From positions 32,001 through 96,000 of the IMG/VR virus record IMGVR_UViG_3300005326_000040: a stretch of DNA of 64,000 bases, one strand, 5' to 3'. The notes beneath the pieces were generated by a model. The model did not search any database and had not been told where the DNA came from. It saw nothing but the letters and a program-made list of their open reading frames with translations. Below are positions 38,060 to 56,457 of the stretch, one piece after another. Both the position numbers and the translations under genes were made by a program. The stretch is from a virus. Its lineage: Duplodnaviria > Caudoviricetes. Within the stretch, counting starts at the first letter, position 1, and every line of letters starts with the position of its first letter.

Positions 38060-38068
38060 TGGTATCAT
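38060..38068 (+). promoter_or_regulatory. Extended -10 promoter for the rightward early region
   Basis: TGnTATCAT upstream of a structured leader. Confidence 0.5.
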
Positions 38069-38353
38069 TAAAGTATAAGGTAATGGTTCGGGGGATAATC
38101 CCCTTCCGAAACCTTATGGTTCCCCGATGTTTCCCCTAACGTTATCCAGGGGTTACTAGTGGGTTCTCCGGGCGTTCTAGAGCGCTGGCAATAAACCAGT
38201 AAGGAACCGATCTGCCCCTAGTTAGGGGTTATTAGGGTTCCGAGAACAACCTAACGGCGCAAAGCCTGGGGAATCTAACGGTAACCTTTGGGCAATCAAA
38301 GGGAAACCAAAAGCCTGACCCAGCAGGATAACTGGGATTCCACGGAGTTTACA

Positions 38354-39055
38354 ATGTCGTTCGCCAAGTCGTTCGCCGCTCGCGTTCTCTCCGCTGCTTC
38401 CGCTCAGCAGACCGCTCCGGCTCCGCAGGTTGCTCCGGTTGCCCAGGCCGCTCCGGCAATTCCGGGAACCGCTGCTCCGGTCATCCCTGGAATGGCGCCT
38501 TCGGTTCCGGTGGCGCCCCAGGCCACCGTCACGCTGGAAGCCATCAGGGCGGTCGTTGCGTCGGCTTACCCGACGCTCAACGCCGGACAGCACGACGCCA
38601 TCACCACCAACATCGCTCGGCTGACCGGGTTGCCGGTCACCGGGGCTCCGCCGAAGAACCTCGGCGGCTACGCCGCCGCAGCGGCGTTCGTCCTCAAGTC
38701 CATCCCTGGCGGGCTGGAGTTGCTCCAGGCCCAGGAGAAGAAGGGGTTGGGAAAGCGCGTGACCGACTTCCACACGGGCGTCACCGTCTGGAAGCAGGCT
38801 GATGTGCTTCGCCACGATGCTGAGACTGGGCTGGTCGTGCAGGGAAAGGAAGGGAACGCCTATCGGTCGGTGACCTTCACCGATGGCAGGGACAAGTCTG
38901 GGCAAACGCTGCGCAAGGCTCTCGTGAGTGCCCTGGCTCCCAAGGGAGCCGTCGAGACGTTGTTGGCGGCTCTGTGCCTCGCCCGGTCGTTTGGCATCAC
39001 CGATGAGATGATCCAGGAACTCGTCACCCGCAGCGCCGCCATCATGTCCAAGTAG
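38354..39055 (+). CDS. Hypothetical protein, first rightward gene (A/P-rich N-terminal linker)
   Basis: GGAG RBS then MSFAKSF. High-GC codon usage. Confidence 0.8.
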   Translation: MSFAKSFAARVLSAASAQQTAPAPQVAPVAQAAPAIPGTAAPVIPGMAPSVPVAPQATVTLEAIRAVVASAYPTLNAGQHDAITTNIARLTGLPVTGAPPKNLGGYAAAAAFVLKSIPGGLELLQAQEKKGLGKRVTDFHTGVTVWKQADVLRHDAETGLVVQGKEGNAYRSVTFTDGRDKSGQTLRKALVSALAPKGAVETLLAALCLARSFGITDEMIQELVTRSAAIMSK

Positions 39056-39080
39056 TTCCCTTCTACGTACCCACCTATTC

Positions 39081-39136
39081 GCCCCTGGTACTGACCCTCA
39101 AAGGGTTGGTGCCAGGGGCACCCTTTTACCCGTTAA
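39081..39136 (+). repeat. Intergenic hairpin repeat H0
   Basis: GCCCCTGGTACTGACCCT-CAA-AGGGTTGGTGCCAGGGGC, followed by ...GTTAA. Confidence 0.75.
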
Positions 39137-39255
39137 AGCCCCTGTAGTTCAAGGGGTTTTAACCACTACCCCTGCGGGGGATTGGAGGGACGACTCAAGG
39201 TGAGTCATGCTCCCTCATTGGGATTCAATAGGGTGTAAACCCGCAGGAGATTACC

Positions 39256-39903
39256 ATGAATAGTTCGATTACCCGCAAGGCTTTCATCGCGATGCTCAAT
39301 ACGTTCGTTCGTCAGATGGAAGGCGTCATTGACGCCTGGAACGCCATTGAACGGATGAACCATATCTGCGCCGACGTTGAGGCGCAGATCTTCAGCAACA
39401 ATAGTGACCGCTACCACGACGGTAGCGTGACCACAACTGATTACAACATCCTTCTGCGAGGGCAGAAGGTGGGGTACGTTCGGGTGCGGGAAACTCACGA
39501 ATATCGGGAGGAAAGGGAGGTCTTTGTCTCCTTCACCGAGCTTTCCCCTCGCGAATGGCGGGAGCGGAAGGCTTCACAGCGGGCTGCGGCCCGCCGTCAT
39601 CAGGAGGCGTACGACGCCTCCCGTGAAGTCGTCGCTGCCGCCCTGGCGGCGGGGCAGTCCGTCCGTGTCCAAGATGGACAGAAAGGGGGGGTTTTCGTGA
39701 TTGGCGACCACAGGGTCGCCGCTGTGCGGCTTCTCACCTCGGCGTATTTCGGTTTCTCTGAGGAAGAGGCGAATCGTCGCCTCGGGGAGGCTTGGTACAA
39801 GGGTAGTGACAGTTGGGGGGGATTCACATTCACCCTCAACCCCGAGTTGGCACATCGCCAGTTCGGTCGTCCTACCAGCATCGAATGGGAGATGACGGCC
39901 TGA
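39256..39903 (+). CDS. Hypothetical protein
   Basis: 215 aa, AGGAG RBS. Confidence 0.8.
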   Translation: MNSSITRKAFIAMLNTFVRQMEGVIDAWNAIERMNHICADVEAQIFSNNSDRYHDGSVTTTDYNILLRGQKVGYVRVRETHEYREEREVFVSFTELSPREWRERKASQRAAARRHQEAYDASREVVAAALAAGQSVRVQDGQKGGVFVIGDHRVAAVRLLTSAYFGFSEEEANRRLGEAWYKGSDSWGGFTFTLNPELAHRQFGRPTSIEWEMTA

Positions 39904-39919
39904 GGGCCTCTTTCCCAGT

Positions 39920-39980
39920 CGCCGATGTTTGCCCCTTTCTCAGCCTTCGGCTGGGGGAGGGGCGTTCTTTCGGCGGTTAA
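39920..39980 (+). repeat. Intergenic hairpin repeat H1
   Basis: CGCCGA-TGTTT-GCCCC-stem/loop-GGGGC-GTTCT-TTCGGCG-GTTAA, with G.U pairs in the upper stem. Confidence 0.92.
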
Positions 39981-40097
39981 AAGCAACCGCCTCTGAGGGG
40001 CGGTATACAAGTACCCTGACGTGAACGAAGGCTTTCCCTACCTTTGGTGAATACCCTATGGGGTAAAGGGGAGACGGTAACATTATCCCACCGACAA

Positions 40098-40173
40098 GCG
40101 GATATGTAGCACAATGTGGAACCTAATGAGTTATTGGCATTAGGGATGGGTTCGATTCCCATATGTGCTGCCG
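40098..40173 (+). ncRNA. Degenerate tRNA-like element
   Basis: T arm ATGGG-TTCGATT-CCCAT, 7-bp stem CCTAATG/CATTAGG with a 9-nt loop, imperfect acceptor stem and D arm. Confidence 0.55.
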
Positions 40174-40257
40174 AGTGAAGATAATTCTTTCATTCGATTG
40201 TGGAGCATTCACAAGTAACAGGGTGTGAGTGGATTGAATCTCCAATCCAACTCTAAC

Positions 40258-40363
40258 TGGGTTTAGCTCAAGGGTAGAGCAACTTATGTTTCAAGGTCCT
40301 TCCTAACCAGCGGGACACCGAAACATAGGGATATATCGAGTTCAAGTCTCGATAGCCCAGCCA
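40258..40363 (+). ncRNA. tRNA-like RNA with greatly extended anticodon arm
   Basis: D arm GCTC-AAGGGTA-GAGC, 10-bp stem CTTATGTTTC/GAAACATAGG enclosing a GTCC/GGAC hairpin, T arm ATCGAG-TTCAAGT-CTCGAT, 3' AGCCCA-G-CCA. Confidence 0.75.
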
Positions 40364-40479
40364 AGTTAGTTGTCCTTTTCCTCTTCGGGGGATTAGCCCA
40401 TAGGGACGTGGGCACACCAGCCGTTATGTGGACGGTTGGAATGATTGTTGGGGTAATCCCCGTTGAAGGAGAATGAATC

Positions 40480-40755
40480 ATGGCACGTCGTAATGCTGCT
40501 CGTCGGGCTCGCAATTCAAAGAGGTCTGCCCTCGTGACTGCCGCTATTCAGATGGCTTGCAATGCGGGCTCCGGGCTTCAACTCTTCGTCGGAGCCTCCG
40601 TCGAGGAGTGTGAGCATGATTACGCGAAGAGCCTCGGTGCGGAAGCTGCAAGGCTCCGCTCGGGGCTCTTGGGATACGGGCTCAATATGGCGGCATTCCG
40701 CCATGAACCGCCCGTCGTTCAAGACTACGTGAGGAACTACATCCTCCTCGCATAG
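40480..40755 (+). CDS. Hypothetical protein
   Basis: 91 aa, AAGGAG RBS, stop directly before H2. Confidence 0.75.
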   Translation: MARRNAARRARNSKRSALVTAAIQMACNAGSGLQLFVGASVEECEHDYAKSLGAEAARLRSGLLGYGLNMAAFRHEPPVVQDYVRNYILLA

Positions 40756-40760
40756 TTTTG

Positions 40761-40823
40761 CCGCCGACGTTTGCCCCTGTATCGGCCTTCGGGCCGGTAT
40801 GGGGGCGTTCTTTCGGCGGTTAA
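40761..40823 (+). repeat. Intergenic hairpin repeat H2
   Basis: Consensus arms with a cUUCGg tetraloop. Confidence 0.92.
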
Positions 40824-40867
40824 CAAGCTCCAGTGGGGTAACCAGTCCCCCATGAAAGGATATTACC

Positions 40868-41086
40868 ATGTACAAGTCCAATTCATTCGGCTCTCTCGGC
40901 GCGTCCCTTGGCGTGGCGAAGGTGCGGGAGCTTTCCCGCGCACTTCATGTCGCCGACTCCCGCCGTGAGGCGGCGAATGTGCAGAAGCTCATCGAGGCGA
41001 AAGCCTCTGAGATGCGTCGTTCGCTGAAGAATCCCGAGAGCTATGCTCTCGTGATCAATGCCCTCAAGAAGGAGGGCAAGCTGTAG
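40868..41086 (+). CDS. Hypothetical protein
   Basis: 72 aa, AAAGGA RBS. Confidence 0.75.
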   Translation: MYKSNSFGSLGASLGVAKVRELSRALHVADSRREAANVQKLIEAKASEMRRSLKNPESYALVINALKKEGKL

Positions 41087-41095
41087 AGCGGGATT

Positions 41096-41158
41096 CCGCC
41101 GATGTTTGCCCCTGCTTTGGCCTTCGGGCCATTGTGGGGGCGTTCTTTCGGCGGTTAA
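41096..41158 (+). repeat. Intergenic hairpin repeat H3
   Basis: Consensus arms, UUCG loop, abuts the AGGAGG RBS. Confidence 0.92.
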
Positions 41159-41170
41159 AGGAGGCGCAAT

Positions 41171-41458
41171 ATGAGTGCGCTCGAACGCAAGAAGGCCGCG
41201 AAGCTGGAAGCGCGGCGAAAGAAGTGTATTCTCTACGAGACAGCCAAGAAGGTTGTCTATAGCGCTGGCACTAAACAGGTGTCAGCAATGGTAAGCCGTC
41301 CGATGGCTTGCCCTCACTCGGACTTCACATACGACTTGTGGGAAGTCGTTGTTTTCAACAGCGACAATTCCACCTGTCGTGCCAGTTGCTATCTTCCAAA
41401 GGAGGAGGCTCTTGCTCTTGCTCGTAATTGGGCAATTGAGTTTGGAGCCATTCTTTGA
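41171..41458 (+). CDS. Hypothetical protein
   Basis: 95 aa. Confidence 0.75.
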   Translation: MSALERKKAAKLEARRKKCILYETAKKVVYSAGTKQVSAMVSRPMACPHSDFTYDLWEVVVFNSDNSTCRASCYLPKEEALALARNWAIEFGAIL

Positions 41459-41461
41459 TAC

Positions 41462-41524
41462 CCGCCGATGTTCGCCCCTTTCTCAGCCATTCTGGCTGGG
41501 GGAGGGGCCTTCTATCGGCGGTTA
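41462..41524 (+). repeat. Intergenic hairpin repeat H4
   Basis: Consensus arms. Upper stem nearly identical to H1. Confidence 0.92.
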
Positions 41525-41528
41525 AGAA

Positions 41529-41666
41529 TGCCAGATATCGTCCCCACTTCCTTTTCCCGCAAGGATTAGGGGGTCAAGTTGAAGAAGGACAAACCGGGAT
41601 GAACAATCCTGGAGGGACGGAGAGCTTTCGAGTTCTCAGGTGGTTCAATTCCATCATCTGGCACCA
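41529..41666 (+). ncRNA. Expanded tRNA-like RNA (138 nt)
   Basis: Acceptor GCCAGAT/ATCTGGC-A-CCA, T arm GGTGG-TTCAATT-CCATC, variable-arm hairpin GAGAGCT-TTCG-AGTTCTC, GTCCC/GGGAC long-range stem. Confidence 0.75.
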
Positions 41667-41762
41667 AAGCAAGTGTGTATCTTTAGGAGTTTGGGATTGT
41701 TTTTGCTCCGGAGTTCGGGAGCAAAGCATAATCATTCTCCTAAAGAACACAAAGGAGGAGAG

Positions 41763-41999
41763 ATGCTGACGAAAACGAATGCAAGAAGGTTGGTGGAGAT
41801 TGTTGCGCAGATAAAAGACTTGTCTGCCAAGAACGGCATGATCGATCAACGCCACGAAGATGTGGCGAAGATTCTGGGGACGTATAAGGAGGATGAATAT
41901 CCTTCTGAAGAAGACCCCGAGTGGCGCAAGAACAACGACGAGATTGGCAATCTCTACAACGAGCTTCTGTCCATCATCAACACAAGTCTCCCCCTGTAG
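41763..41999 (+). CDS. Hypothetical protein
   Basis: 78 aa, AGGAGG RBS. Confidence 0.75.
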   Translation: MLTKTNARRLVEIVAQIKDLSAKNGMIDQRHEDVAKILGTYKEDEYPSEEDPEWRKNNDEIGNLYNELLSIINTSLPL

Positions 42000-42005
42000 A
42001 GACTT

Positions 42006-42067
42006 CCGCCGATTACCCGCCCCTTTTCAGCCTTCGGGCTGAGGAGGGGCGCCCTTTCGGCGGTTAA
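42006..42067 (+). repeat. Intergenic hairpin repeat H5
   Basis: Consensus arms, UUCG loop. Confidence 0.92.
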
Positions 42068-42109
42068 AAGCTACACCCTATCCCAAGTATGTTCTCGTTC
42101 TCTCCATTA

Positions 42110-42118
42110 TGGTATGGT
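42110..42118 (+). promoter_or_regulatory. Second extended -10 promoter-like element
   Basis: TGnTATGGT followed by a leader similar to the one at 38060. Confidence 0.45.
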
Positions 42119-42343
42119 TTTCAGTAGGGGGTAAAACATAAACCCCTTCTGGAAACTCTACCTCAACAATTCCCGATGTTTCTTTGTGTAGGGTTGTTGC
42201 CTACACGAGAGATAAAAGGATAGTTGATAGTATGACCCCCACCAAAGGGTCATTTATTAATGGGTAGAGGGTGAGAACAAACCTGGAGTGGAATTATCGA
42301 ATCGCCTGATAGGCGGCCTGGGGGCGGAACAACAACTCGGAGA

Positions 42344-42886: not shown

Positions 42887-42896
42887 ACCTGTTTCT

Positions 42897-42961
42897 CCGC
42901 CGATTGTTTGCCCCTGCTTTCGCCTTTCGAGGCGATTGAGGGGCATTCTTTCGGCGGTTAA
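42897..42961 (+). repeat. Intergenic hairpin repeat H6
   Basis: Consensus arms, UUCG loop. Confidence 0.92.
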
Positions 42962-42983
42962 CAAGCAACCACTGGAGGCTGCT

Positions 42984-43232
42984 ATGAAGAAGCTGTGGTT
43001 TTGGGTGCATAGTGCGCCCACGGGGTTCGTCAAGGATGCTGATCGTCATGTTGTTGTGATGGCGATTGCTACCGAGGACGAGATTTATGGCCCTGGTATC
43101 GGTCTCGACAACTGGCACGAGACTGGTATCGAGGGCACTCTTGATGGTTGCCTCGCGACCCTCAAGAAGAATCATCCATGCGTCAACATGGAGACAATCC
43201 TCGGCGGCTGTTTGGGTTACGCCGTCGAATAA
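42984..43232 (+). CDS. Hypothetical protein
   Basis: 82 aa, GGAGG RBS. Confidence 0.75.
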   Translation: MKKLWFWVHSAPTGFVKDADRHVVVMAIATEDEIYGPGIGLDNWHETGIEGTLDGCLATLKKNHPCVNMETILGGCLGYAVE

Positions 43233-43540
43233 TAGTGGCTGATAAGTTGCTATCAAGAAAGGGCAGGAACGTATAGGAGTAACAATCCTAGTTCGAGTCT
43301 CCCCATAGGAAAGATAGGGCAAAGCCCACGTTGGACAATCTTTCCGCAGGTTTAGGCGAGCCAACCTATGGATGACTATAAACGGTTATAAGGCTCAGGG
43401 TCCAATGTTACTAGGTTAGGAAGGAGACCCAATGTAACGATAGCGGGTCTGGAGACAACTGAATAGCCCACCCTTCGGCAAGGTGGGCAATCTTAAGGGT
43501 ATGACTATTATGGTTGTATCCTTAAGATTGCCCAATTAGC
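43233..43540 (+). ncRNA. Candidate ~300-nt multi-stem ncRNA
   Basis: ORF-free on the + strand. Stems CCATAGG/CCTATGG, GGAAAGAT/ATCTTTCC, AGTAACA/TGTTACT, AGACCC/GGGTCT, and a 22-bp terminal hairpin. Confidence 0.55.
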
Positions 43541-43568
43541 CCCAACATATACCTGAGAGGAAAGAGTC

Positions 43569-43925: not shown

Positions 43926-43929
43926 TTCG

Positions 43930-44106: not shown

Positions 44107-44167
44107 TTCTGTTCGCCCCTGCTTTGGCCCTTCGGGGCCATTGTGGGGGCGATTCATTGGCAGTTAA
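44107..44167 (+). repeat. Intergenic hairpin repeat H7
   Basis: Upper stem nearly identical to H3. Lower stem diverged, TTAA retained. Confidence 0.85.
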
Positions 44168-44178
44168 GGAGAGGTCCA

Positions 44179-44678: not shown

Positions 44679-44681
44679 ATT

Positions 44682-44710
44682 GGCAGGTTCGATTCCTATC
44701 CGTTCGGCCA
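44682..44710 (+). other. Isolated tRNA 3' half
   Basis: GCAGG-TTCGATT-CCTAT-CCGTTCG-G-CCA directly after a stop codon and before an RBS. No matching 5' half seen. Confidence 0.65.
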
Positions 44711-45536: not shown

Positions 45537-45597
45537 ATGGTGTTCGCCCGTTATTCGGCTATAGAGCCGGGTGACGGGCGATGCTGTTTTCTTTTAA
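45537..45597 (+). repeat. Intergenic hairpin repeat H8 (subfamily B)
   Basis: About 23-bp stem with an ATAG loop and many G.U pairs. 61/62 nt identical to H10. Confidence 0.9.
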
Positions 45598-47855: not shown

Positions 47856-47863
47856 GGGGTTGG

Positions 47864-47914
47864 TCGCCCGGTATCGTTCTTGGAACGGTATCGGGCGATG
47901 CTGTTTTTATTTAA
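47864..47914 (+). repeat. Intergenic hairpin repeat H9 (subfamily B)
   Basis: TCGCCCGGTATCGTTC-TTG-GAACGGTATCGGGCGA then TGCTGTTTTTATTTAA. Confidence 0.85.
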
Positions 47915-48245: not shown

Positions 48246-48779
48246 ATGAACCAGAGCAACATGATTGCCATGGCTACGAGCCCTTCATCGTTCGACATGT
48301 TCAAGTTGACGGAGATTCTCGTCAACTGCGGAGGGACGATCTTCGGTGGGTTCGTGAGGGACATGGTGGCTGGGCAGTTGGACTTCGTGAGCGACATCGA
48401 CGTGAGTATGCGTCAGGAGTTCAAGCTCCAGTATCTCATGGCAAGGCTTATCAAAGAATACCAGCAAGTGCTGGTGTCGGCCTTGCCTGTGAAGAATTAC
48501 GGGAGAGGGAACCCCGACGGGTTCCGGTTGACTGTGGACGGTATTGATGTTGATATCGTTTGCGAGGCCGATCGAGGAATCCTTGACCTCGACGTGAATG
48601 GGCTCCTGTGGGACAATAATGGGTTGAGGTTGGATATCAGCCGATATCGTGTCAACGGGGACACCTTCGTTCAGTTGGTTCAACGGATTCAGCAGAAGCA
48701 GTTCCGTCGAATCGACGTTCCGCTGTGGCGGGAGAGGAAGGTGGCGAAGCTGAAGTCGATGGGGTGGACGGAAGTGTGA
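48246..48779 (+). CDS. Minimal nucleotidyltransferase (CCA-adding/poly(A) polymerase head-like)
   Basis: IFGGFVRD...SDIDV signature, third acidic strand IDVDIV, DLDVNGL (DFxINAL-like). No body or tail domain. Confidence 0.75.
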   Translation: MNQSNMIAMATSPSSFDMFKLTEILVNCGGTIFGGFVRDMVAGQLDFVSDIDVSMRQEFKLQYLMARLIKEYQQVLVSALPVKNYGRGNPDGFRLTVDGIDVDIVCEADRGILDLDVNGLLWDNNGLRLDISRYRVNGDTFVQLVQRIQQKQFRRIDVPLWRERKVAKLKSMGWTEV

Positions 48780-48787
48780 GGGTAGGG

Positions 48788-48848
48788 ATGGTGTTCGCCC
48801 GTTATTCGGCTATAGAGCCGAGTGACGGGCGATGCTGTTTTCTTTTAA
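48788..48848 (+). repeat. Intergenic hairpin repeat H10 (subfamily B)
   Basis: Copy of H8 with one U.G to U-A compatible change. Confidence 0.9.
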
Positions 48849-48876
48849 TGAGGGCGTCATTGAAAGGACAAGAAGA

Positions 48877-49476
48877 ATGATCAAGACAATCAACAGCAAC
48901 ATCGTCAAGTGCTTCGACAGCTTCTGCGTTGGGACCAAGATCAAGAATGTCGAAGCGTTCTTGAGGCTGTTGGAAGCAGCCATCGAGAGTTTCGATTGGT
49001 CGTCCTGTAAGGCACCAGGGCAAGCCAAGATTCCGATGTCCACCGAAGCGTGTCAGCACGTTTACTCGGGGATTGGTTTGAAGACAGAGAACCCCAACGA
49101 TTACGTGATTCGTCAGTGGCGTGGTTCGGTAGCGATGTATCTCAAGAGGGAGCACGCCATTGCTTGTGATTCAGTGAAGGTCATTGTGTATACGAAGCAG
49201 GCGTATCTCGATGACCCGGATTGCAAGGGGAATCCTGAGAAGGGAATTATCGGGGACGAAGAGGAATACAATCGGGTAAGTCAGTCCGATTGTACACACG
49301 TTCTGATAGCGGTTCAGGCGGACGCTGGTCCGGAGAGTCCAGTTGCACCGGGGCGGTTCGTAGCGAACCTAGCCGGTGCGAACAATGAGTACGAGGCCAA
49401 AACCGCCGAGCAGCTTCAACAATTGGCGAGAGAGATTCGCGACTACTATGCGACGTATATGGTGGTTGCGGACTGA
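48877..49476 (+). CDS. Hypothetical protein
   Basis: 199 aa, AAAGGA RBS. Confidence 0.8.
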   Translation: MIKTINSNIVKCFDSFCVGTKIKNVEAFLRLLEAAIESFDWSSCKAPGQAKIPMSTEACQHVYSGIGLKTENPNDYVIRQWRGSVAMYLKREHAIACDSVKVIVYTKQAYLDDPDCKGNPEKGIIGDEEEYNRVSQSDCTHVLIAVQADAGPESPVAPGRFVANLAGANNEYEAKTAEQLQQLAREIRDYYATYMVVAD

Positions 49477-49552
49477 CAAGTAACTTCTCGTTGGTTGTTT
49501 GAAGGGTAATTACCGGGAGATAATGTAATGAAGATTGGAATCTGAGCAGTAA

Positions 49553-49640
49553 GGCCCGCTGGTGGAAATGGTGAGACACACAGGATTTAAAATCCTGCGG
49601 CCGAAAGGTCATAAGGGTTCGACTCCCTTGCGGGCTACCA
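49553..49640 (+). tRNA. trnL: tRNA-Leu (anticodon TAA)
   Basis: GGCCCGC/GCGGGCT acceptor, CAGGA-TTTAAAA-TCCTG anticodon arm, long variable arm, AAGGG-TTCGACT-CCCTT T arm, A73 and encoded CCA. Confidence 0.95.
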
Positions 49641-49660
49641 ATGGTTTGAAGGAGGTTTTT

Positions 49661-50017
49661 ATGGGGCGAAAGAAGAAGACGAAGGCTGATTACGAGGAGC
49701 TACCGTTTAGACTGGGTAATTCTAGACGCCTTCAAGTAGATGGAGTAGTAAAGAAGATGGCGCCTGGAAGATTGGACGAATGGAGGTGGGACCAATATGG
49801 TCGGTCGATAAAGGGGTTGGAATATTTTAACTTGCTTCATCAGGTTTGGGGTAGGATTGAAAGAATAACTCCAGTCCTTCACGTAGTCTACATATTCAAA
49901 GATGAAGTTACGTGGGGACGGCGAGAGTGTTGGGTAAAGCTGAAGAATGGTAAGATGGTAGAGTGGTCGAAGAAGGCGATAAGCTGGAAAGAATATCGCG
50001 AGACGCAGTATCGGTAG
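49661..50017 (+). CDS. Hypothetical protein
   Basis: 118 aa, GGAGG RBS. Confidence 0.7.
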   Translation: MGRKKKTKADYEELPFRLGNSRRLQVDGVVKKMAPGRLDEWRWDQYGRSIKGLEYFNLLHQVWGRIERITPVLHVVYIFKDEVTWGRRECWVKLKNGKMVEWSKKAISWKEYRETQYR

Positions 50018-50025
50018 TGATTGAT

Positions 50026-50105
50026 GGGGCGATAAGGTATATGGGGATATCTATTAGAATGTAATAGATATCTTTTAGAAGGTTCAAATCCTTCTAGGCC
50101 CGCCA
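50026..50105 (+). ncRNA. tRNA-like element with an 11-bp perfect stem in place of the anticodon arm
   Basis: GATATCTATTA-GAATG-TAATAGATATC, T arm (TA)GAAGG-TTCAAAT-CCTTC(TA), 3' GGCCC-G-CCA, weak D arm. Confidence 0.65.
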
Positions 50106-50134
50106 ACGAATTGGGATTTGAAAGGAACGATGAG

Positions 50135-50476
50135 ATGCCGGTTCACAAGTGGAGTGAAATCAAGAATAAAATGGCGCCAGAACGTCAGGAGAGACTTCGC
50201 GCCGAAACTGACAAGCTGCTCACTGAGATTGAGAACAAGGTAACGGTGTGCAGTTTGCGTGAACTGCGTGAGATGGTTGGCAAGACTCAAGCTGAGGTTG
50301 GCAGCAGTCTTGGAATGACTCAATCTCAAGTCTCCAAGCTCGAACGGCGCAAGGACCATCTTCTTTCAACGATTCGGCGTTATGTTGAAGCGTTGGGAGG
50401 CGAGCTTCAAGTGAGTGTGATTATTGAGGGGAAAAGAATAACGTTGGTTGGAGGACAAAAGCTTCATCGAGAGTGA
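50135..50476 (+). CDS. XRE-family HTH protein, HigA-like antitoxin
   Basis: LRELREMVGKTQAEVGSSLGMTQSQVSKLERRKDHLLSTIRRYVEALGGELQV. Confidence 0.88.
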   Translation: MPVHKWSEIKNKMAPERQERLRAETDKLLTEIENKVTVCSLRELREMVGKTQAEVGSSLGMTQSQVSKLERRKDHLLSTIRRYVEALGGELQVSVIIEGKRITLVGGQKLHRE

Positions 50477-50497
50477 AGCTTTGAAAGGAAAGCTGAG

Positions 50498-50932
50498 ATG
50501 CCGGTACAGATTACATACAAGGCGGCGCAGATTCTCGCTGAAGCAGAAAAGGTGAATCTGGAAGACGCGATTCAACTCAACCAATATGGGGCGTTGTTTC
50601 GATGTCAGGAGGGAACGGAGGTAGGCAGGACTCTTGGGGAGGAGGGGCCGAAGTATTACATATGGGGGTCTAAGCCAAGGATTCCTCAGGGGCCGGGAGG
50701 GGTTGAGGGGGACGTTCAGGAGACGCTCAAGCGGCTGAAGGAAACCATCATTGGTTTGGTTCAAGTTGCCGTACCAGCATTGATGAAGCTGGCTGTAGCA
50801 AAGGATAGGGTTACGCTTCTCGACGCAATTGGTTTTGATCAAGATGAAAAAGCCAAGGCTGTGAAGGCTAGATTGGAAAAGGAGATTCAAGACCTTCAGA
50901 CTGAAGTGACGGCTTTGTTGTACAGCATGTAG
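50498..50932 (+). CDS. Hypothetical protein
   Basis: 144 aa. Confidence 0.75.
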   Translation: MPVQITYKAAQILAEAEKVNLEDAIQLNQYGALFRCQEGTEVGRTLGEEGPKYYIWGSKPRIPQGPGGVEGDVQETLKRLKETIIGLVQVAVPALMKLAVAKDRVTLLDAIGFDQDEKAKAVKARLEKEIQDLQTEVTALLYSM

Positions 50933-50940
50933 GAGGAGAG

Positions 50941-51237
50941 ATGAGAAAAATCTTCTTGCTCCTCTTTGATACTGGGGATTACGAAGACCGTGAATCAGTC
51001 CCAGTCAAAGCCTTTGTGGATGAAACAAAGGTTCAGGCTTTGAGGGACAGCCTCAATAATAAGTTGGCTGAAAAGAACCTGTATCTTCAAGGAGATGAGG
51101 ATAACGCCGTCATTTTCAGCGGAACCAACGCAATGGCTCTTGAAAAGGAGCTTAAGGACATTTACAGCATTGATGTAAGAATCTACAGCACAGGAGGATA
51201 CTTCAGCGTAACTCATATACAGTTGGACGAAAGTTAG
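50941..51237 (+). CDS. Hypothetical protein
   Basis: 98 aa, AGGAGG RBS. Confidence 0.75.
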   Translation: MRKIFLLLFDTGDYEDRESVPVKAFVDETKVQALRDSLNNKLAEKNLYLQGDEDNAVIFSGTNAMALEKELKDIYSIDVRIYSTGGYFSVTHIQLDES

Positions 51238-51300
51238 GATAGCGGCTAGGATAACATTCCGGATCAACAACGATTTCCAGTATTGAAAGGCAGGATTACC

Positions 51301-51567
51301 ATGGCATTTACATTCGGAACTCTCGCTTCCAAGTTGGCTCCCTCGGCTGAAACCAAGAAGCTTTCGGCGACGCAGCAGCGGAAGATGATTGCTGCTGAGA
51401 TTGGGGAGAAGGTGAAGGGTGCTGGGAATCCTCAGCTGATGTTGGAGATTGTGGTTCGGCACATCAATAACCTTCATCGTCGAGACCTTGGGTACGTAGA
51501 CATGAAGAACCCGGCCCATATGGAAAGGGTGGCGGACTTCGTGGCGGCGTGTTTGAGGGTGAAGTAA
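51301..51567 (+). CDS. Hypothetical protein
   Basis: 88 aa. Confidence 0.7.
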   Translation: MAFTFGTLASKLAPSAETKKLSATQQRKMIAAEIGEKVKGAGNPQLMLEIVVRHINNLHRRDLGYVDMKNPAHMERVADFVAACLRVK

Positions 51568-51758
51568 TGAAAGTCATTCAGATTTCGGAACAACAACTGG
51601 ACTTGTTGTTCGAGACGGCGCTAGCCACCATCACGAATCACATCCTTCGGGGGAAGGAAAGGACAGCAGACTTTACTGGACAGAACGAACTTGATTCTGC
51701 TCAGCGTAACATTCACTATCACATGACAATGTTGAAGGAAGCTGTGAAGACTGGATAA
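51567..51758 (+). CDS. Hypothetical protein
   Basis: 63 aa, TAATG coupling. Confidence 0.65.
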   Translation: MKVIQISEQQLDLLFETALATITNHILRGKERTADFTGQNELDSAQRNIHYHMTMLKEAVKTG

Positions 51759-51770
51759 TCTCACCGAGCG

Positions 51771-51847
51771 AGGTAGAGTAAATGGGAACACAAGGCCCGA
51801 CCAATCATTCGATTGGGGTGAAGGTTCGAATCCTTCTCTATCTTCTA
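51771..51847 (+). ncRNA. Anticodon-less tRNA-like RNA (ATTC tetraloop)
   Basis: Acceptor AGGTAGA/TCTATCT, hairpin CCAATC-ATTC-GATTGG, T arm GAAGG-TTCGAAT-CCTTC, 3' T-CTA, degenerate D arm. Confidence 0.75.
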
Positions 51848-51863
51848 ATGAAAGGGGTTTGAA

Positions 51864-52160
51864 ATGCTAGTTGTAACGACACAATCGGGGCGATACATAG
51901 TGTTTGATGTCACTGAGTATCGACCTGGGATTCCTGTTCCACCAATCTATAACTTCTTCGCGGAGGGAGGAAAGAAACCTTTCTTCTATGAACCGCTTGA
52001 TTGGTTTCTTCGCGGTGAGAGGCCGTATCCGCCGCCATACAGCGCCTATCCGATGATGTTTTCCGAAGGATATGCGACGCAGGACGAGGCGCTGAGAGCG
52101 GCGGAAAAAACGGAAGCAATGAGAGATAGTTTGAGAGCAAAACTCTCTAGAAGGGAGTAA
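51864..52160 (+). CDS. Hypothetical protein, paralog of 53958-54218
   Basis: Shared SGRxxxFD, FFxPxDW and GYAxxxEALxAAE motifs. Confidence 0.75.
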   Translation: MLVVTTQSGRYIVFDVTEYRPGIPVPPIYNFFAEGGKKPFFYEPLDWFLRGERPYPPPYSAYPMMFSEGYATQDEALRAAEKTEAMRDSLRAKLSRRE

Positions 52161-52164
52161 GGTT

Positions 52165-52911
52165 ATGGCAAAGTACGAACCATACAGTCATGTTGTTTTC
52201 TTCCAGCGCAACGGCGATTCTGTGGAAACGTTGGCAGCTGGGTCCATCGACCCCGAAACCAACGAAATCAAAGACTTCACGATTACATACTTTGAAGATG
52301 GGAAACCGTTTCCCGCTACGAAGTATGAAGTCATCTTGGCGAAGGAATACTTCGTCGATGGTTTCCACGGAATGATGGCGCAGTTGGAGGAAGAGGATAA
52401 GCTCAGTTACGTATTGAGCTTTGCGACGGGGAGATATGAAGAACGGGAAACGAGCCCGGTTCTTGTAGTTTTTGGAAAGAAGTGCGCGTACAAACTGGTG
52501 ACCGATCTCAACAACAAGTTGGTAGAGGCTCGTCTGCACGAGGAAGAGGGGGACTTTAGGTATAGCGAAAAAGGTGCGGATGACTTCGCTGCGGCGGTCG
52601 AAAAGGAATACGGAATCACCATCACGTTCGCAAGCAATTATGGTGGTGCTTTCGATGTTACCTTGGTCCCGACGACGCTCAACATGCAAGGCCGAATTGA
52701 ACGAGCCAAGGCAGAAGCGCTGAGGGATGCGGCGGCTCTCGTGTTTGTTTGTAAGGATCGTTCTCCTGTTGAGTTGCGAGAGAAGATTATCGAGTTGATT
52801 CCGCCGTCACAATTGGACAAATGTTCCAAGTGTCATGGCAAGAGGGGCGGCGTACCCGGCAACGAAAACGTTGAAGATAGTGGGCTGCTTGTTTGCGACT
52901 ATTGCTCATAG
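52165..52911 (+). CDS. Hypothetical protein with C-terminal Zn-binding motif
   Basis: 248 aa, ends CSKC..GGVPGNEN....VCDYC. Confidence 0.8.
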   Translation: MAKYEPYSHVVFFQRNGDSVETLAAGSIDPETNEIKDFTITYFEDGKPFPATKYEVILAKEYFVDGFHGMMAQLEEEDKLSYVLSFATGRYEERETSPVLVVFGKKCAYKLVTDLNNKLVEARLHEEEGDFRYSEKGADDFAAAVEKEYGITITFASNYGGAFDVTLVPTTLNMQGRIERAKAEALRDAAALVFVCKDRSPVELREKIIELIPPSQLDKCSKCHGKRGGVPGNENVEDSGLLVCDYCS

Positions 52912-52924
52912 AAAGAGTGAAGCC

Positions 52925-53254
52925 ATGAATTCAAAGAATCAAGTGTCATCACCTTCTCGCACATACGTTGCGGTATGTAACAAGCCGAACTTCGACGGGC
53001 ACTACTTCAGGAAGTTCGATCTTCCAGAGAGCGTGCTCAATGGAATGCAATTGAATGATGGAACCTATATGGAAGGTTCTCATTCGTTCATTCTTCGCAA
53101 CAATACGGAGGATGCGTCTTGGTACTTCTTGAGCTTCCTCAATCGTGTTGCTTGCATTGATTGCGTCATCACTTGGGAGGATTATAACTCCCTGGAGAAC
53201 CAGGACGAACTCAACGCGAAGATAGAGGAAGAGTGGGCGAAGACGGGCAGTTGA
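52925..53254 (+). CDS. Hypothetical protein
   Basis: 109 aa. Confidence 0.7.
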   Translation: MNSKNQVSSPSRTYVAVCNKPNFDGHYFRKFDLPESVLNGMQLNDGTYMEGSHSFILRNNTEDASWYFLSFLNRVACIDCVITWEDYNSLENQDELNAKIEEEWAKTGS

Positions 53255-53265
53255 AGGGAGAAGTG

Positions 53266-53547
53266 ATGGGCAGACAAGTTCACACCATGCACCTTATCAA
53301 TTCCCTGGAAGAGTTGTTGTCTTGGGCGGGAGTTGATAAGTGGGAAACAGAAGAAGAGCGAGTCAAACATCGGAGGTTCTGGACGATTCGTTGGAACAGA
53401 CACGCTGAGAAACATGGGAATGTTCCCATGAAGATGAAGTGTGACGTATGCTCTGGAAAGGAGCGCAAGAACGATATCAAACACGGGAGGTTCAAGCCTT
53501 CTCAGCCGGATAAGGCATTGAGGAAAGAAAGAAAGGGAGAAGAGTAA
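53266..53547 (+). CDS. Hypothetical basic protein
   Basis: 93 aa. Confidence 0.65.
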   Translation: MGRQVHTMHLINSLEELLSWAGVDKWETEEERVKHRRFWTIRWNRHAEKHGNVPMKMKCDVCSGKERKNDIKHGRFKPSQPDKALRKERKGEE

Positions 53548-53738
53548 TGCCGCTAACAATCAACGATATGATTGCTCTGCTTGTGCGGATGAAGTCAGAG
53601 TCTCCGAAGGGAGGGAACACTGAGGTCTGTGTTCTTTTGCCTCACGAAGGGTACAAAGGGGTTACGGATGTGATGGCAGACAGGGACAATAATGGGGTTC
53701 CTGTGGTGCTTTTGATTGTTGGCGGGGAGTTGAGATAG
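53547..53738 (+). CDS. Hypothetical protein
   Basis: 63 aa, TAATG coupling. Confidence 0.65.
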   Translation: MPLTINDMIALLVRMKSESPKGGNTEVCVLLPHEGYKGVTDVMADRDNNGVPVVLLIVGGELR

Positions 53739-53739
53739 T

Positions 53740-53940
53740 ATGGGAAAGGATTCAAAAGAGTTCACTGTCGTCTATGACGATGTGGTTTTGCGTGACGATG
53801 AGACCATTGAGATTCACGCAAAACCTGGGACGGGATTGGTGTGCGGCGCTGCCAACGATTGCACAAGATTGAAAGGGCACAAAGGAAAACACGCTAATCT
53901 TTACAACGGGAGAAGGTGGGGAGGATATATTAGTTACTAA
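53740..53940 (+). CDS. Hypothetical protein
   Basis: 66 aa, Cys/His motif C...C...GHxGxH. Confidence 0.65.
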   Translation: MGKDSKEFTVVYDDVVLRDDETIEIHAKPGTGLVCGAANDCTRLKGHKGKHANLYNGRRWGGYISY

Positions 53941-53957
53941 GGAGCGTAGGAATTAAA

Positions 53958-54218
53958 ATGAAAACCAAGAGCGGTCGGCATGTCATTTTCGACGCAACTT
54001 CCCCCGAGTTCTTGAAGGGGCAGTTGTTGTCCAAAGACTTTGTGGATGCGGCTCCGAATGGGGAGCCGTGGTTCTTCCAACCTGCTGATTGGAACGAGGA
54101 AAACTTCTGGGGAGGATTGTACAGCAGGAAGTCTCCTTTCGCTTATTCTCCTGGGTATGCTTCTGCGGAAGAAGCATTGGAGGCGGCTGAGGGTTGGGAG
54201 AGCAGGAGAAAATCATGA
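53958..54218 (+). CDS. Hypothetical protein, paralog of 51864-52160
   Basis: Shared motifs with 51864-52160. Confidence 0.75.
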   Translation: MKTKSGRHVIFDATSPEFLKGQLLSKDFVDAAPNGEPWFFQPADWNEENFWGGLYSRKSPFAYSPGYASAEEALEAAEGWESRRKS

Positions 54219-54526
54219 GCAACGGTCGAGCGATGGTTTTGATTGATGGAGTTCACAAGTGGGTGGACTCTGACTTCCTGCGCTTGATTGAGGGGCAGGA
54301 CAGTCGCGTAGAGTATCTAGGGGGAACGAAGAGTGGGGAGGAGGGATGCATCGAAGTGATTGGGGAGAATGTGTACTTCAGCGCATTCCCCGACAACGAT
54401 AGCGGACAGACCAACCTTCAGGCTTTCATCAAGCCTCTCTCGGAAAAGGAGAAGGCGTTGGTGGAAGCTGGGGTTGAGTGTTCGCCCAAAGAGGTTCAGG
54501 AACTAAGGAGCTACTGGGTACTATGA
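54215..54526 (+). CDS. Hypothetical protein, paralog of 44727-45038
   Basis: WVDS and GEEGCIEV motifs. Confidence 0.8.
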   Translation: MSNGRAMVLIDGVHKWVDSDFLRLIEGQDSRVEYLGGTKSGEEGCIEVIGENVYFSAFPDNDSGQTNLQAFIKPLSEKEKALVEAGVECSPKEVQELRSYWVL

Positions 54527-55011
54527 GTCCATATGCAGGCTGTCAAGGGCAAAGCATAGGAAGAGTGCTTCACTTTCTCTACCATTACTGTGGACTTCTC
54601 GTTGCTGAATATGCAGAAATCGGAGACCGTGAAGTAAAGTATAATGGCAAGAAGATCGCCTTCTTTTACTTCAGGGGAGACGTTCCGATATTCGAGTTCG
54701 TCAACCCAGATTACAATGAAGTACAGTCGTTCAAGCGAGACGAGGCGATTCGAGATGGGGCGCCTCGGATTCCTGAAGGCACGAGAGAGGCTGTAAAGGA
54801 AGCGATTCTGGCATTCTGTAAGATTGGGGATGCCAACTATCTGGAATATCCAACCAGCCACGTTGCTGCAAGAAGCATCTCCAAGGCAGCAAGTGTTCTT
54901 GAGACGTGGTTCGACGGAAACCTCAGGAACATGCCGAAAGAAGACTATCTCCGCGCAATCGAACTCGGGGTGAAAGCCATGAGGGAGATTGAGTCAATCA
55001 GACCCAAATAG
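54523..55011 (+). CDS. Hypothetical protein
   Basis: 162 aa, ATGA coupling. Confidence 0.75.
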   Translation: MSPYAGCQGQSIGRVLHFLYHYCGLLVAEYAEIGDREVKYNGKKIAFFYFRGDVPIFEFVNPDYNEVQSFKRDEAIRDGAPRIPEGTREAVKEAILAFCKIGDANYLEYPTSHVAARSISKAASVLETWFDGNLRNMPKEDYLRAIELGVKAMREIESIRPK

Positions 55012-55023
55012 GAGGGTAGCAGA

Positions 55024-55326
55024 ATGAAGTTGAACACAACGAAGAAGTATTGGTTCAAGGATCCCAAGACGAAGGAGGTAGATGTGCCATTGGCAGAATT
55101 GATTGTGCAGTTGACGGACAAGATTCTGCCATTCACGTCGGAGTTGACGATCAACAACTTCTCGGCGGAAACGGCAGAAATCAGGTTGACTCAGGTCAAC
55201 GGGTTCTTCTGCAAGAGAACCTTCACCATCACCGGGACACCCGAGGAAATCAAGCTCCTCGGGGAAACGATTCAGGTGTATACGCGGCGGCATCCCCTTC
55301 TCAAGAAGGAGGGGCGGCGGCGATGA
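55024..55326 (+). CDS. Hypothetical protein
   Basis: 100 aa, GGAGG RBS. Confidence 0.75.
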   Translation: MKLNTTKKYWFKDPKTKEVDVPLAELIVQLTDKILPFTSELTINNFSAETAEIRLTQVNGFFCKRTFTITGTPEEIKLLGETIQVYTRRHPLLKKEGRRR

Positions 55327-55469
55327 GTCGAAAGATTCTTTCCAGTGACCTTTACTGGCCGCCCAGTAATCTTCACTGGTACGGCGGCTACTACTATCGG
55401 TGAATAAAAACATGAGCCAAAGAATCGAGAACGGTCCAAACATAAGCTAGGTGAACGGGGAATACTGGA

Positions 55470-55823
55470 ATGGTTCTAGCCCCGCTTCACCGCTTATACA
55501 GAGGACCATTGGAAAAGAACAAGAAGCGTGGAAACCGCCGCTCTCAGAGTGAAACCATCGTAGCCCGCCGCCATCACAGTCACAAGAGGGACAATGATAG
55601 AATTGTTCAGAACTGCTGGGGCGGTAGGGAACAGTATCTTGCGAAAATCGTGATTCCTCCCAGAGGAGAATGTTCACCGAACATCTACCGAAAGTGGAAT
55701 GGTACTTGTGATTGTTGTCATTGTAAGTGGAATCAAGTATGGGATCACGAGGAAGTAAAGCGCGAGAGAGCGGCAGGAAAGGAAGAAGTTCTGAAAGGGC
55801 TTCTTGAATACATGGGCAATTAG
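55470..55823 (+). CDS. Hypothetical basic, Cys-containing protein
   Basis: 117 aa, start uncertain. Confidence 0.55.
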   Translation: MVLAPLHRLYRGPLEKNKKRGNRRSQSETIVARRHHSHKRDNDRIVQNCWGGREQYLAKIVIPPRGECSPNIYRKWNGTCDCCHCKWNQVWDHEEVKRERAAGKEEVLKGLLEYMGN

Positions 55824-55932
55824 TAAACCGCAGGAGGCGCCATGAGAATTCTGACGAAGATGTAGCGATTAGGCTTAGTTAGTTCCTGCTCTTTAGGCTC
55901 ACCGAATCACTGCTAGAAAAAGTCAATACAAA

Positions 55933-56006
55933 TGGCAAGTAGCTCAATTGGATAGAGCGTCAGCGTTCGCTGAAGGTTATAGGTTCAAATCCTATCTTGC
56001 CTACTA
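55933..56006 (+). ncRNA. Anticodon-less tRNA-like RNA (GTTC tetraloop)
   Basis: GGCAAG/CTTGCC acceptor, TA, GCTC-AATTGGATA-GAGC, TCAGC-GTTC-GCTGA, AGGTT, ATAGG-TTCAAAT-CCTAT, A-CTA. Confidence 0.9.
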
Positions 56007-56101
56007 GGAAAGGAGGAAGCAATGTACAGAATTGAATTTATCTAGGTGGATGAATCTTTTGGGTGGTCCTTGGGTTCACTCCACCGGAAGCAGGAAAAAC
56101 C

Positions 56102-56374
56102 ATGCGATACGGACTGCATATCGAGTTGAGCGATACGGTAATCGAGCAGACTGAAACCCACACGAGATGTTCTTCCTGGCACAATATCCACAAGAACTGC
56201 AAGAGTCTGGAGGAAGCAGACGAGATTTGCTACAAGATTCTCTCTACGTTCTCTAAGGGTTTCGGAAGGGATGAGTATGTGTCATTCAACCAAGAAAGGA
56301 GAAGCTTCTATACCTTCCGAGAAGGTGGCTCGATTGTTGGTGTAGCCAACTGCCGTGTTACGACCCTGAATTGA
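56102..56374 (+). CDS. Hypothetical protein
   Basis: 90 aa. Confidence 0.65.
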   Translation: MRYGLHIELSDTVIEQTETHTRCSSWHNIHKNCKSLEEADEICYKILSTFSKGFGRDEYVSFNQERRSFYTFREGGSIVGVANCRVTTLN

Positions 56375-56387
56375 AAACCCGCCCAAA

Positions 56388-56457
56388 AGATAAGTAGCTC
56401 AATGGTAGAGCGCCAGCATTCGCTGGGGTGCAGGTTCGAGCCCTGCCTTATCTTCTA
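56388..56457 (+). ncRNA. Anticodon-less tRNA-like RNA (ATTC tetraloop)
   Basis: AGATAAG/CTTATCT acceptor, TA, GCTC-AATGGTA-GAGC, CCAGC-ATTC-GCTGG, GGT, GCAGG-TTCGAGC-CCTGC, T-CTA. Confidence 0.9.

Follow-up and report, generated by a model that had tools for sequence, protein, structure and literature searches.

The window analysed here is a stretch of 64,000 nucleotides, bases 32001-96000 of a 338,055-bp virus record (IMG/VR IMGVR_UViG_3300005326_000040) whose completeness is rated 97%. Its 38-57 kb segment is composed of about 50 small genes, all on the + strand, and encodes a small nucleotidyltransferase (NTase). An earlier note on this DNA had stated that many gene junctions over ~18 kb carry either a hairpin or a tRNA-shaped element, and this is indeed found at about 18 of the ~50 junctions, the others being tight (0-20 nt). 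The hairpins are GC-rich and fall into two families, A and B. The tRNA-shaped elements are real, structurally selected and co-oriented with the genes, and most of them harbor no anticodon; they may be excised from an early transcript by the tRNA-processing enzymes of the host. They are listed here together with the leader preceding the first of them (E, expectation value in the covariance model described below; z, fold z-score; bits, score in the Rfam tRNA model):

39985-40096, + strand: structured leader (hairpin and multi-stem region, consensus fold), immediately 5' of the first tRNA-like element
40106-40172, + strand: D-arm-less tRNA-like RNA with an 8-bp acceptor-type stem, a 7-bp stem with a 9-nt loop, and a T arm (E 0.02)
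40257-40363, + strand: CCA-ended cloverleaf in which the D and T arms are normal and the anticodon-type arm is greatly lengthened (E 6e-4, z -4.8)
41530-41666, + strand: expanded, ACCA-ended tRNA-like RNA of 137 nt, whose multi-hairpin core is combined with a T arm and a perfect acceptor stem of 7 bp (z -4.0)
49553-49640, + strand: tRNA-Leu(UAA) with an encoded CCA end (ARAGORN, Rfam), 81% identical to positions 8144-8229 of the related contig L011
50027-50105, + strand: tRNA-like RNA with a 13-bp hairpin replacing the anticodon arm, a short acceptor stem, a T arm and a GCCA end (E 1e-3, z -3.4)
51771-51846, + strand: anticodon-less tRNA with a 6-bp stem bearing an AUUC loop, a degenerate D arm and a U-CUA tail
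55933-56006, + strand: anticodon-less cloverleaf with a 5-bp stem bearing a GUUC loop and an A-CUA tail (57 bits)
56388-56457, + strand: anticodon-less cloverleaf with a 5-bp stem bearing an AUUC loop and a U-CUA tail running into the ribosome-binding site (52.9 bits)

Eight of the nine sites given as tRNA-shaped in the earlier note are genuine: one tRNA-Leu(UAA), three elements with a 4-nt NUUC loop, and four that are expanded or D-arm-less. The ninth, at 44682, was rejected, being a simple 16-bp hairpin (E 0.86) whose arm contains TTCGATTCC by chance. In the Rfam tRNA model RF00005 (gathering threshold 29 bits), 49553 (50.6 bits), 55933 (57 bits) and 56388 (52.9 bits) all score above threshold and 51771 below it (19.2 bits); 40097 (the element at 40106-40172), 40258 (that at 40257-40363), 41530 and 50027 are not detected by Rfam. 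A normal anticodon loop (UAA) is found in 49553 only, which ARAGORN calls tRNA-Leu(UAA). At the anticodon position, 55933 displays a 4-nt GUUC loop and 56388 and 51771 an AUUC loop, with no 7-nt loop holding a triplet, and in 40097, 40258, 41530 and 50027 the anticodon arm is enlarged or replaced. Seven elements (40097, 40258, 41530, 49553, 51771, 55933 and 56388) possess an acceptor stem of 7-8 bp and a T arm of 5 bp whose loop reads TTCRANY; the acceptor stem of 50027 is short (~4 bp). Acceptor stem and T arm are kept by every variant, be it cloverleaf, D-arm-less, expanded, or one of the 44-60-nt minihelices of the related metagenome contigs L011 and L018 (see below), and most variants keep the D/T elbow as well.

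The anticodon-less family has six members in the genome (positions 83771, 87933, 88388, 99075, 110581 and 112577, all on the + strand), which are confined to a block of raised G+C and to the stretch just beyond it. Their alignment comprises eight sequences, two of which come from L011. In this alignment 96.3% of the cells are paired, and 17 of the 21 pairs, among them all five of the tetraloop-capped stem, are altered on both sides, with a mean column identity among the paralogues of only ~64%; none of 500 shuffles reached the observed pairing and covariation. A covariance model built from this alignment, run with filters off over 27 kb of both strands, returned three extra matches on the + strand, 40258 (E 6e-4), 50027 (E 1e-3) and 40097 (E 0.02); on the - strand, no match was better than E 0.77. 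Family members and weaker tRNA-like matches thus lie on the coding strand only. A scan of the whole genome for a T arm with an acceptor stem gave 30 matches on the + strand and three poor ones on the - strand.

These data bear on the question of whether the array has an integrated function at all. Large phages intersperse tRNAs among small genes, and the segment might be such a fast-evolving orphan and tRNA region, of the T4 or T5 type, in which ordinary terminators stand beside harmless, decaying tRNA duplicates. Nearly all proteins of the block are orphans, the family B hairpins are ordinary terminator-like structures, families A and B are not seen in relatives, and half of the genomic contexts of the NTase family are devoid of a nearby tRNA. 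Decay, however, would break pairing, and decaying tRNA genes would hardly be expected to show a covariation in which 96% of cells still pair and 17 of 21 pairs are compensatory at ~64% column identity. Furthermore, orthologous elements are more conserved than the genes flanking them, and the loss of the anticodon loop with all else kept recurs in L011 and in unrelated contigs. An array without integrated function is therefore considered quite unlikely.

The 3' ends of the elements resemble those of tRNAs. In the genuine tRNAs of this phage, the discriminator base is followed by CCA in 7 of 16 cases and by CTA in 5 of 16, the background frequency of CTA being 1.1%; CTA-tailed examples are found at G000:C1:162354, 162468, 28032, 1595 and 236645. 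This CTA may be a conserved 3' trailer or processing signature. The anticodon-less elements possess CTA in five cases out of six and CCA in the remaining one, and CCA is found in three of the four expanded elements. This tail, shared with genuine tRNAs, suggests that the non-decoding mimics would pass through the same 3' maturation.

Their placement is that expected of punctuation, with tRNA-like folds on the coding strand at the borders of coding regions. The elements of the tightly filled junctions (50027, 51771 and 56388) begin 8-13 nt past the stop codon, and 49553 and 55933 begin 76 nt and 109 nt past it, respectively. For each of the five elements in 49553-56388, the distance from its end to the next ATG is 15-29 nt, and 49553, 55933 and 56388 run directly into the next ribosome-binding site. 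The members at genome positions 99075 and 112577 similarly end 19-22 nt ahead of an ATG. Directly after the 55933 element and ahead of the real gene at 56102, a 7-codon mini open reading frame (ORF; 56023-56046) with a strong ribosome-binding site is also observed.

Relatives of the region were found on metagenome contigs, the NTase homologues of which are 42% identical to that of the window on L011-L017 and 30% on L018. Contig L011 (13.5 kb) has a design like that of the window, with small + strand genes and a G+C falling from 0.56 to ~0.40, and carries at least eight tRNA-type elements. These include a tRNA-Leu(UAA) located 7 nt 5' of the NTase gene, a cloverleaf (position 3700) in which an AUUC loop replaces that of the anticodon, a 60-nt form without any anticodon arm (position 11499), acceptor/T-arm minihelices (positions 1680 and 7692), and homologues of the window elements 40097 and 50027. 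In L018, a 44-nt acceptor/T-arm minihelix stands directly 5' of the NTase gene. The co-occurrence of the three components in relatives, proposed as a check by the earlier note, holds for the tRNA-like elements and the NTase. It fails for the hairpin families A and B, which are not seen in the relatives (blastn against L011 gives no match at the hairpin positions); the relatives carry hairpins of other sequence.

The best-conserved DNA between the window and L011 is that of the RNA elements, with 78-82% identity by blastn and 87% by pairwise alignment for the 50027 element; the shared proteins are 40-60% identical and their gene order is shuffled. The 39985 leader and the 40106 element together match L011:138-325 with 82% identity over 192 nt, which is the top DNA match between the two loci. 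Compensatory changes between the two contigs are found in the 40106 element (AU>UA in the acceptor stem, GC>AU in the anticodon-type stem), in the 50027 element (a swap within the long stem) and in a 5'-untranslated-region (5'-UTR) hairpin at 55430 (A-U to G-C).

Gene 49661 and the 50027 element, matched by L011:4568-4974, are one example of a conserved RNA element located at a cassette border. With gene order so different between the two contigs and conserved RNA elements at such borders, the hairpins and tRNA-like elements might mainly be short linkers for homologous recombination, by which cassettes are shuffled. A documented precedent is that of the PeSLs, promoter-stem-loop cassettes of T4-type phages proposed as recombination motifs flanking small orphan genes (PMC2839356, PMC4122927). 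The array resembles them by its repeated structured motifs at orphan-gene borders, in a hyperplastic early region, and by a gene order shuffled between relatives, and the family A copies, which are up to 92% identical within 5 kb, could serve in this way. Recombination, however, needs sequence identity and not pairing, and the compensatory variation points to selection on RNA structure; unlike in PeSLs, no early-promoter motif was detected in or alongside the elements in a scan for promoters of the sigma-70 type. Linkage as the main role is very unlikely, although a PeSL-like recombination role is compatible with excision and may coexist with it.

Beyond these relatives, a looser search for the anticodon-less pattern retrieved one locus in IMG/VR and 24 in metagenomes, the majority of the latter being ordinary tRNAs (for example Gly-UCC with short variable loops). 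Loops of 3-5 nt are found in L028, L030, L032, L033, L046, L047 and L048 and in the IMG/VR locus, L024, and a loop of 6 nt in L044. Anticodon-less cloverleaves hence occur also in unrelated viral, marine and other metagenome contigs (e.g. L024:3418-3488 and L030:1352-1424), one of them between two genes of a 64-kb IMG/VR contig with 67% G+C. Exact patterns of hairpin A and of the anticodon-less tRNA gave two chance-like matches or none in IMG/VR.

The hairpins of the array, together with two stem structures that belong to neither family, are as follows:

39081-39119, + strand: GC-rich hairpin-family variant, 26 nt past the stop codon of gene 38354-39055 (intergenic fold -0.45 kcal/mol per nt)
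39919-39976, + strand: family A copy 1, three helices, ~22 bp, UUCG-type loop
40761-40819, + strand: family A copy 2
41096-41154, + strand: family A copy 3, its 3' end 4 nt short of the ribosome-binding site
41462-41521, + strand: family A copy 4 (z -7.6)
42006-42063, + strand: family A copy 5
42897-42957, + strand: family A copy 6
44112-44153, + strand: family A variant without the outer helix
44664-44711, + strand: plain 16-bp hairpin across a stop codon (E 0.86 in the tRNA-like model)
45544-45595, + strand: family B copy 1, 17-bp stem and T-run (z -8.1)
47863-47912, + strand: family B copy 2, terminator-like
48795-48846, + strand: family B copy 3, terminator-like, directly 3' of the NTase gene
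55430-55500, + strand: 5'-UTR hairpin, not tRNA-like, 5' of gene 55509-55823, 79-81% identical to L011:11953-12053

The 11 GC-rich hairpins comprise seven copies and one variant of family A and three copies of family B. All of them begin 4-26 nt past the upstream stop codon, and their distance to the next start is variable, from 16 to >280 nt; because of this fixed position near the stop, they are taken as 3'-end elements of the upstream gene. Family A hairpins are built of an outer helix of 7 bp (CCGCCGA/TCGGCGG), an asymmetric internal loop, a GCCCC/GGGGC helix and a variable apical helix. Beyond the outer helix they count 15 pairs, capped by a UUCG-type loop, for a total of ~22 bp. In the seven copies, 90.6% of the cells are paired, versus 42-57% when the partners are slid, and five pairs are altered on both sides; the fold z-score of copy 41462 is -7.6. 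A T-tract, TTCTTTC, follows the inner hairpin, and the outer helix closes over it. The inner hairpins of two copies score as terminator-like, with a T-tract weaker than that of family B. The latter possesses a 17-bp stem followed by a T-run, and its three copies all qualify as intrinsic-terminator-like (z-score of -8.1 for copy 45544).

The early polycistronic RNA of phage T7 carries RNase III sites between its cistrons, in the form of irregular hairpins of ~20 bp with an internal loop. Family A is predicted to share this shape: its hairpins stand between cistrons, are irregular, span about two helical turns and contain an internal loop. Unlike the T7 sites, they hug the upstream stop codon and possess a T-rich tract after their inner hairpin, and the family B hairpins look like plain terminators. 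Family A could be a leaky terminator that turns into a 22-bp RNase III-type substrate upon read-through; its role is ambiguous, as it could also be a 3'-exonuclease barrier or an RNase III site proper. Family B looks, from its sequence, like an intrinsic terminator or attenuator and not like an RNase III site. The idea of the earlier note that the hairpins may be RNase III sites fits the shape of family A and not family B. The tandem it had described at 41462-41666, a hairpin followed at once by a tRNA-like RNA, is confirmed, the family A copy at 41462-41521 and the 41530 element being 8 nt apart. The change from hairpins to tRNA-like elements along the array holds only roughly, since the family A copies are interspersed at 40.1-41.7 kb with three elements of the tRNA-like type.

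RNase P, RNase Z and the CCA-adding enzyme need no more than an acceptor/T-arm stack. Because the acceptor stem and T arm are kept throughout, the 3' tails are of the tRNA type, the elements are placed between stop codon and ribosome-binding site, and their structure is under selection, excision of the tRNA-derived elements from the early transcript by host tRNA-processing enzymes is favored as the best reading of these sequences, with roughly even chances of being right. A long early transcript would span many genes, from which host RNase P and the 3' tRNA-processing enzymes would cut out the tRNA-shaped elements. These cuts would separate the mRNAs just 5' of the next ribosome-binding site and would release stable, CCA-finished tRNA-like by-products. 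The family B hairpins would terminate or attenuate the transcript, and those of family A would function as leaky terminators, exonuclease barriers or RNase III sites.

In mitochondrial tRNA punctuation and with the t-elements of plant mitochondria (Forner et al. 2007, PMC1920247), tRNA or tRNA-like folds stand between the coding regions of one transcript, and non-decoding tRNA-like elements set mRNA ends via RNase P and RNase Z. The array resembles these organelle systems by its tRNA-type folds between coding regions, here on the coding strand. It differs from them in belonging to a bacteriophage, in having elements at about a third of its junctions, with hairpins alongside, and in that processing is here a prediction. 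Furthermore, the full cloverleaves of this phage, in which a tetraloop replaces the anticodon loop, form a multi-copy family that is no part of the organelle systems. No report of anticodon-less tRNAs or of tRNA punctuation in phages was found in a literature search, and a review of jumbo phages (PMC7824862) goes no further than CCA-adding enzymes and a Ro/TROVE protein that has a tRNA-like partner. If excision takes place as proposed, phages would have reached independently the gene-separating trick of mitochondria, having host enzymes cut early transcripts at non-decoding look-alikes of tRNAs. Prediction in large phages, be it of gene boundaries, of mRNA stability or of translation starts, would then have to follow other rules, and a meaning could be given to the phage tRNA genes with an "undetermined anticodon", which annotation pipelines either report or drop. 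The cloverleaf family with a tetraloop for an anticodon is, besides, a natural set of substrates on which the requirements of RNase P, RNase Z and the CCA-adding enzyme can be read.

Several points weigh against excision. The sole public run containing the region is a groundwater DNA metagenome, with no RNA run among those that hold it. With elements at only ~18 of the ~50 junctions, punctuation would be partial at most, and the terminator-like family B hairpins break the supposed polycistron. An RNase III domain (PF14622) was not found in the phage. Given the shuffled gene order, the high conservation of the elements could stem in part from recombination between phages. Finally, full cloverleaves with intact D arms exceed the needs of processing, which hints at a role for the released RNA.

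This last point leads to the view that the tRNA-shaped RNAs are mainly trans-acting, namely CCA-ended mimics that bind or titrate a tRNA-recognising factor, their intergenic position being a mere route of expression. Candidate partners would be a host defence system or toxin aimed at tRNA ends, a phage Ro60-like protein, or either of two phage NTases. A minihelix would suffice for processing, and yet the full L-shape (D arm with GG, T loop, 7-bp acceptor stem) is found in the six paralogues, in which the anticodon loop has been repeatedly replaced by a compact NUUC loop. Stable tRNA-like RNAs are known from phage T4, the tRNA cluster of which yields species 1 and 2 RNAs (rnaC, rnaD), co-processed with the tRNAs and of obscure function. 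The 137-nt, ACCA-ended 41530 element may be likened to them in size and concept. Unlike in the T4 cluster, the elements of the present phage are scattered singly among protein genes.

The phage possesses, moreover, a broad tRNA toolkit. It encodes at least 16 tRNAs, including Leu(UAA), Ile(UAU), two Arg tRNAs and one suppressor; the anticodon of a tRNA called by ARAGORN at G000:C1:28046-28121, within a tRNA cluster, is UUA and would pair with the stop codon TAA. A PTH2-type peptidyl-tRNA hydrolase is found at G000:C1:127090-127494 (100 bits). It had been considered as a neighbour of the mimics and was discarded as such, its gene lying 14 kb past the last anticodon-less tRNA. A second CCA-type NTase, of 256 residues (G000:C1:296216-296986; L049:1435-2205), displays a clear PolyA_pol head (54.5 bits); it is shorter than cellular CCA-adding enzymes and more orthodox than the 177-residue one. 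A TROVE/Ro60-family match (30.5 bits) is borne by a 536-residue ORF at G000:C1:248300-249900. Among RNA repair genes, RtcB was sought and not found; a search for T4 RNA ligase gave no match in any control genome and is hence uninformative.

The Ro60-like protein is of interest since bacterial and phage Y RNAs (YrlA) are non-decoding tRNA mimics with tRNA-like domains that partner Ro60, some of them being substrates of RNase P and of the CCA-adding enzyme (PMC4201824). The elements of the window are likewise non-decoding mimics in a phage with a TROVE/Ro60-like protein. However, Y RNAs adjoin Ro60 and are permuted, with a Ro-binding stem; the phage elements have open acceptor ends and not the permuted topology of YrlA, and they lie >135 kb from the TROVE gene. 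Models of Y RNAs gave no match in the window, nor within 6 kb on either side of the TROVE ORF, and no partner is found adjacent. The G3:U70 pair and the long variable arm are absent from the sequences, which makes anticodon-independent charging unlikely, and the degenerate minihelix and stub variants of the relatives favor a minimal processing role. A mainly trans-acting function is hence judged unlikely, if worth keeping in mind. It is likewise doubtful that the mimics, once released by tRNA-processing enzymes, form a new class of RNAs acting in trans in host takeover, punctuation and mimic production being then two outputs of one device. Such mimics would possibly be uncleavable, non-decoding decoys or inhibitors of host factors that bind tRNAs, or else the partner RNAs of the head-only NTase or of the Ro60-like protein.

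The NTase of the array is the following:

48246-48779, + strand: NTase of 177 residues, predicted as head-only, class II CCA/poly(A) type

The earlier note had recognized here an enzyme with the head of CCA-adding enzymes or poly(A) polymerases. Its place inside the array stands, but the protein consists of the head only and goes with tRNA-Leu(UAA), less clearly with the mimics. It has no match in Pfam, PolyA_pol not being reached at E 0.01, and a weak PHROG match to "nucleotidyltransferase". A library-wide search gave 15 homologues of 153-189 residues, across which G34, G35, R38, D50, D52, D114 and N118 are invariant. Head motifs A (GGxVRD, DxD) and B are present, the D..N motif aligning to motif B. 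The family profile aligns with the head of human TRNT1, a class II CCA-adding enzyme (E 3e-5), including an RRD..N motif. The AlphaFold model has a mean pLDDT of 85.5, and its top Foldseek matches are CCA-adding and A-adding enzymes, with TM-scores of ~0.45-0.54 over the query.

The NTase thus has a head domain in common with poly(A) polymerases and class II CCA-adding enzymes, among them those found in jumbo phages (PMC7824862). Unlike them, it is less than half the normal length (177 residues versus 340-450 in solved enzymes) and is devoid of the tRNA-holding neck, body and tail domains. The nucleotide-selection motif D (EDxxR) is not among its conserved columns, and the alignment stops after the head. 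Because motif D, neck, body and tail are absent, it is, by sequence and model, a head-only relative of class II CCA-adding enzymes rather than a demonstrated CCA-adding enzyme. In IMG/VR, its relatives amount to none or to one doubtful partial match (L022, 27%), with no tRNA nearby.

Eight genomic contexts of the NTase family are readable. In three of them (the window, L011 and L053, the last with 27% identity), a tRNA-Leu(UAA) is located within 1.2 kb on the same strand; a minihelix is found in one (L018), and nothing tRNA-type is near in the other four. With that tRNA in three of eight contexts, the NTase is linked to tRNA-Leu(UAA), a link to the mimics being unclear, and belongs to the tRNA toolkit. 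The spans that hold both genes are window 48246-49640, L011:8144-8769 and L053:42-1823, with protein identities of 27-42%; the tRNA of L053 ends in A-CTA. A head-only NTase tied to tRNA-Leu(UAA) in three lineages would represent an uncharacterised type of enzyme. The single integrated system of hairpins, tRNA mimics and NTase envisaged by the earlier note does not emerge from these contexts, with families A and B unseen in relatives and the NTase linked to tRNA-Leu(UAA).

The array is located within a distinct genomic block. At window 37.8-38.0 kb, a divergent junction, the coding strand switches from - to +, and the G+C rises sharply from 0.40 to ~0.58-0.60, to return smoothly to 0.40 across ~35 kb. 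This raised-G+C block covers window 37750-64000 and extends to genome ~105 kb. Along the block, third-position G+C (GC3) falls from 0.79 to 0.50. At genome 70-90 kb, 1-3% of leucine codons are TTA and 3-15% of arginine codons are AGA, against 15-28% and 20-39%, respectively, in most other parts of the genome. The avoidance of TTA and AGA and the fall in GC3 are consistent with expression ahead of the phage tRNA supply and fit a block translated from the host tRNA pool before phage tRNAs exist. The TTA-avoiding block itself encodes tRNA-Leu(UAA), and a TTA/AGA-avoiding block bearing the tRNA that reads TTA evokes a timed supply of codons in the course of infection.

From this we infer that the block harbors the early, host-takeover genes of an uncultured jumbo phage. 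Sigma-70-type promoters, the only type scored, are not in excess (11 found versus 14.9 expected), which is consistent with long transcripts. Searches of Pfam and PHROGs with 25 proteins of the block gave almost no matches, nearly all of them being orphans; the family matches of the block are a helix-turn-helix protein, a DOT1-like methyltransferase, a weak DUF3696 and the NTase (weak PHROG). Both halves of the window were compared by megablast with 50,697 phage records without any match.

Other structured DNA is found in and before the array. The intergenic regions 43233-43568 and 42000-42343 (~340 nt each) fold at -0.34 and -0.43 kcal/mol per nt, respectively, and have no Rfam match. Homology between 270-nt RNAs at 38075 and 42070 was considered and rejected, blastn with 7-base words giving no match and the common motifs being short and seen by eye only. 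Ahead of the array, the divergent intergenic region, which is very GC-rich, contains two copies of a ~30-nt repeat (window 37919-37950 and 37988-38018) with a 10-bp palindrome, TGACCATATA...TATATGGTCA, which could be an operator, a promoter or an origin.

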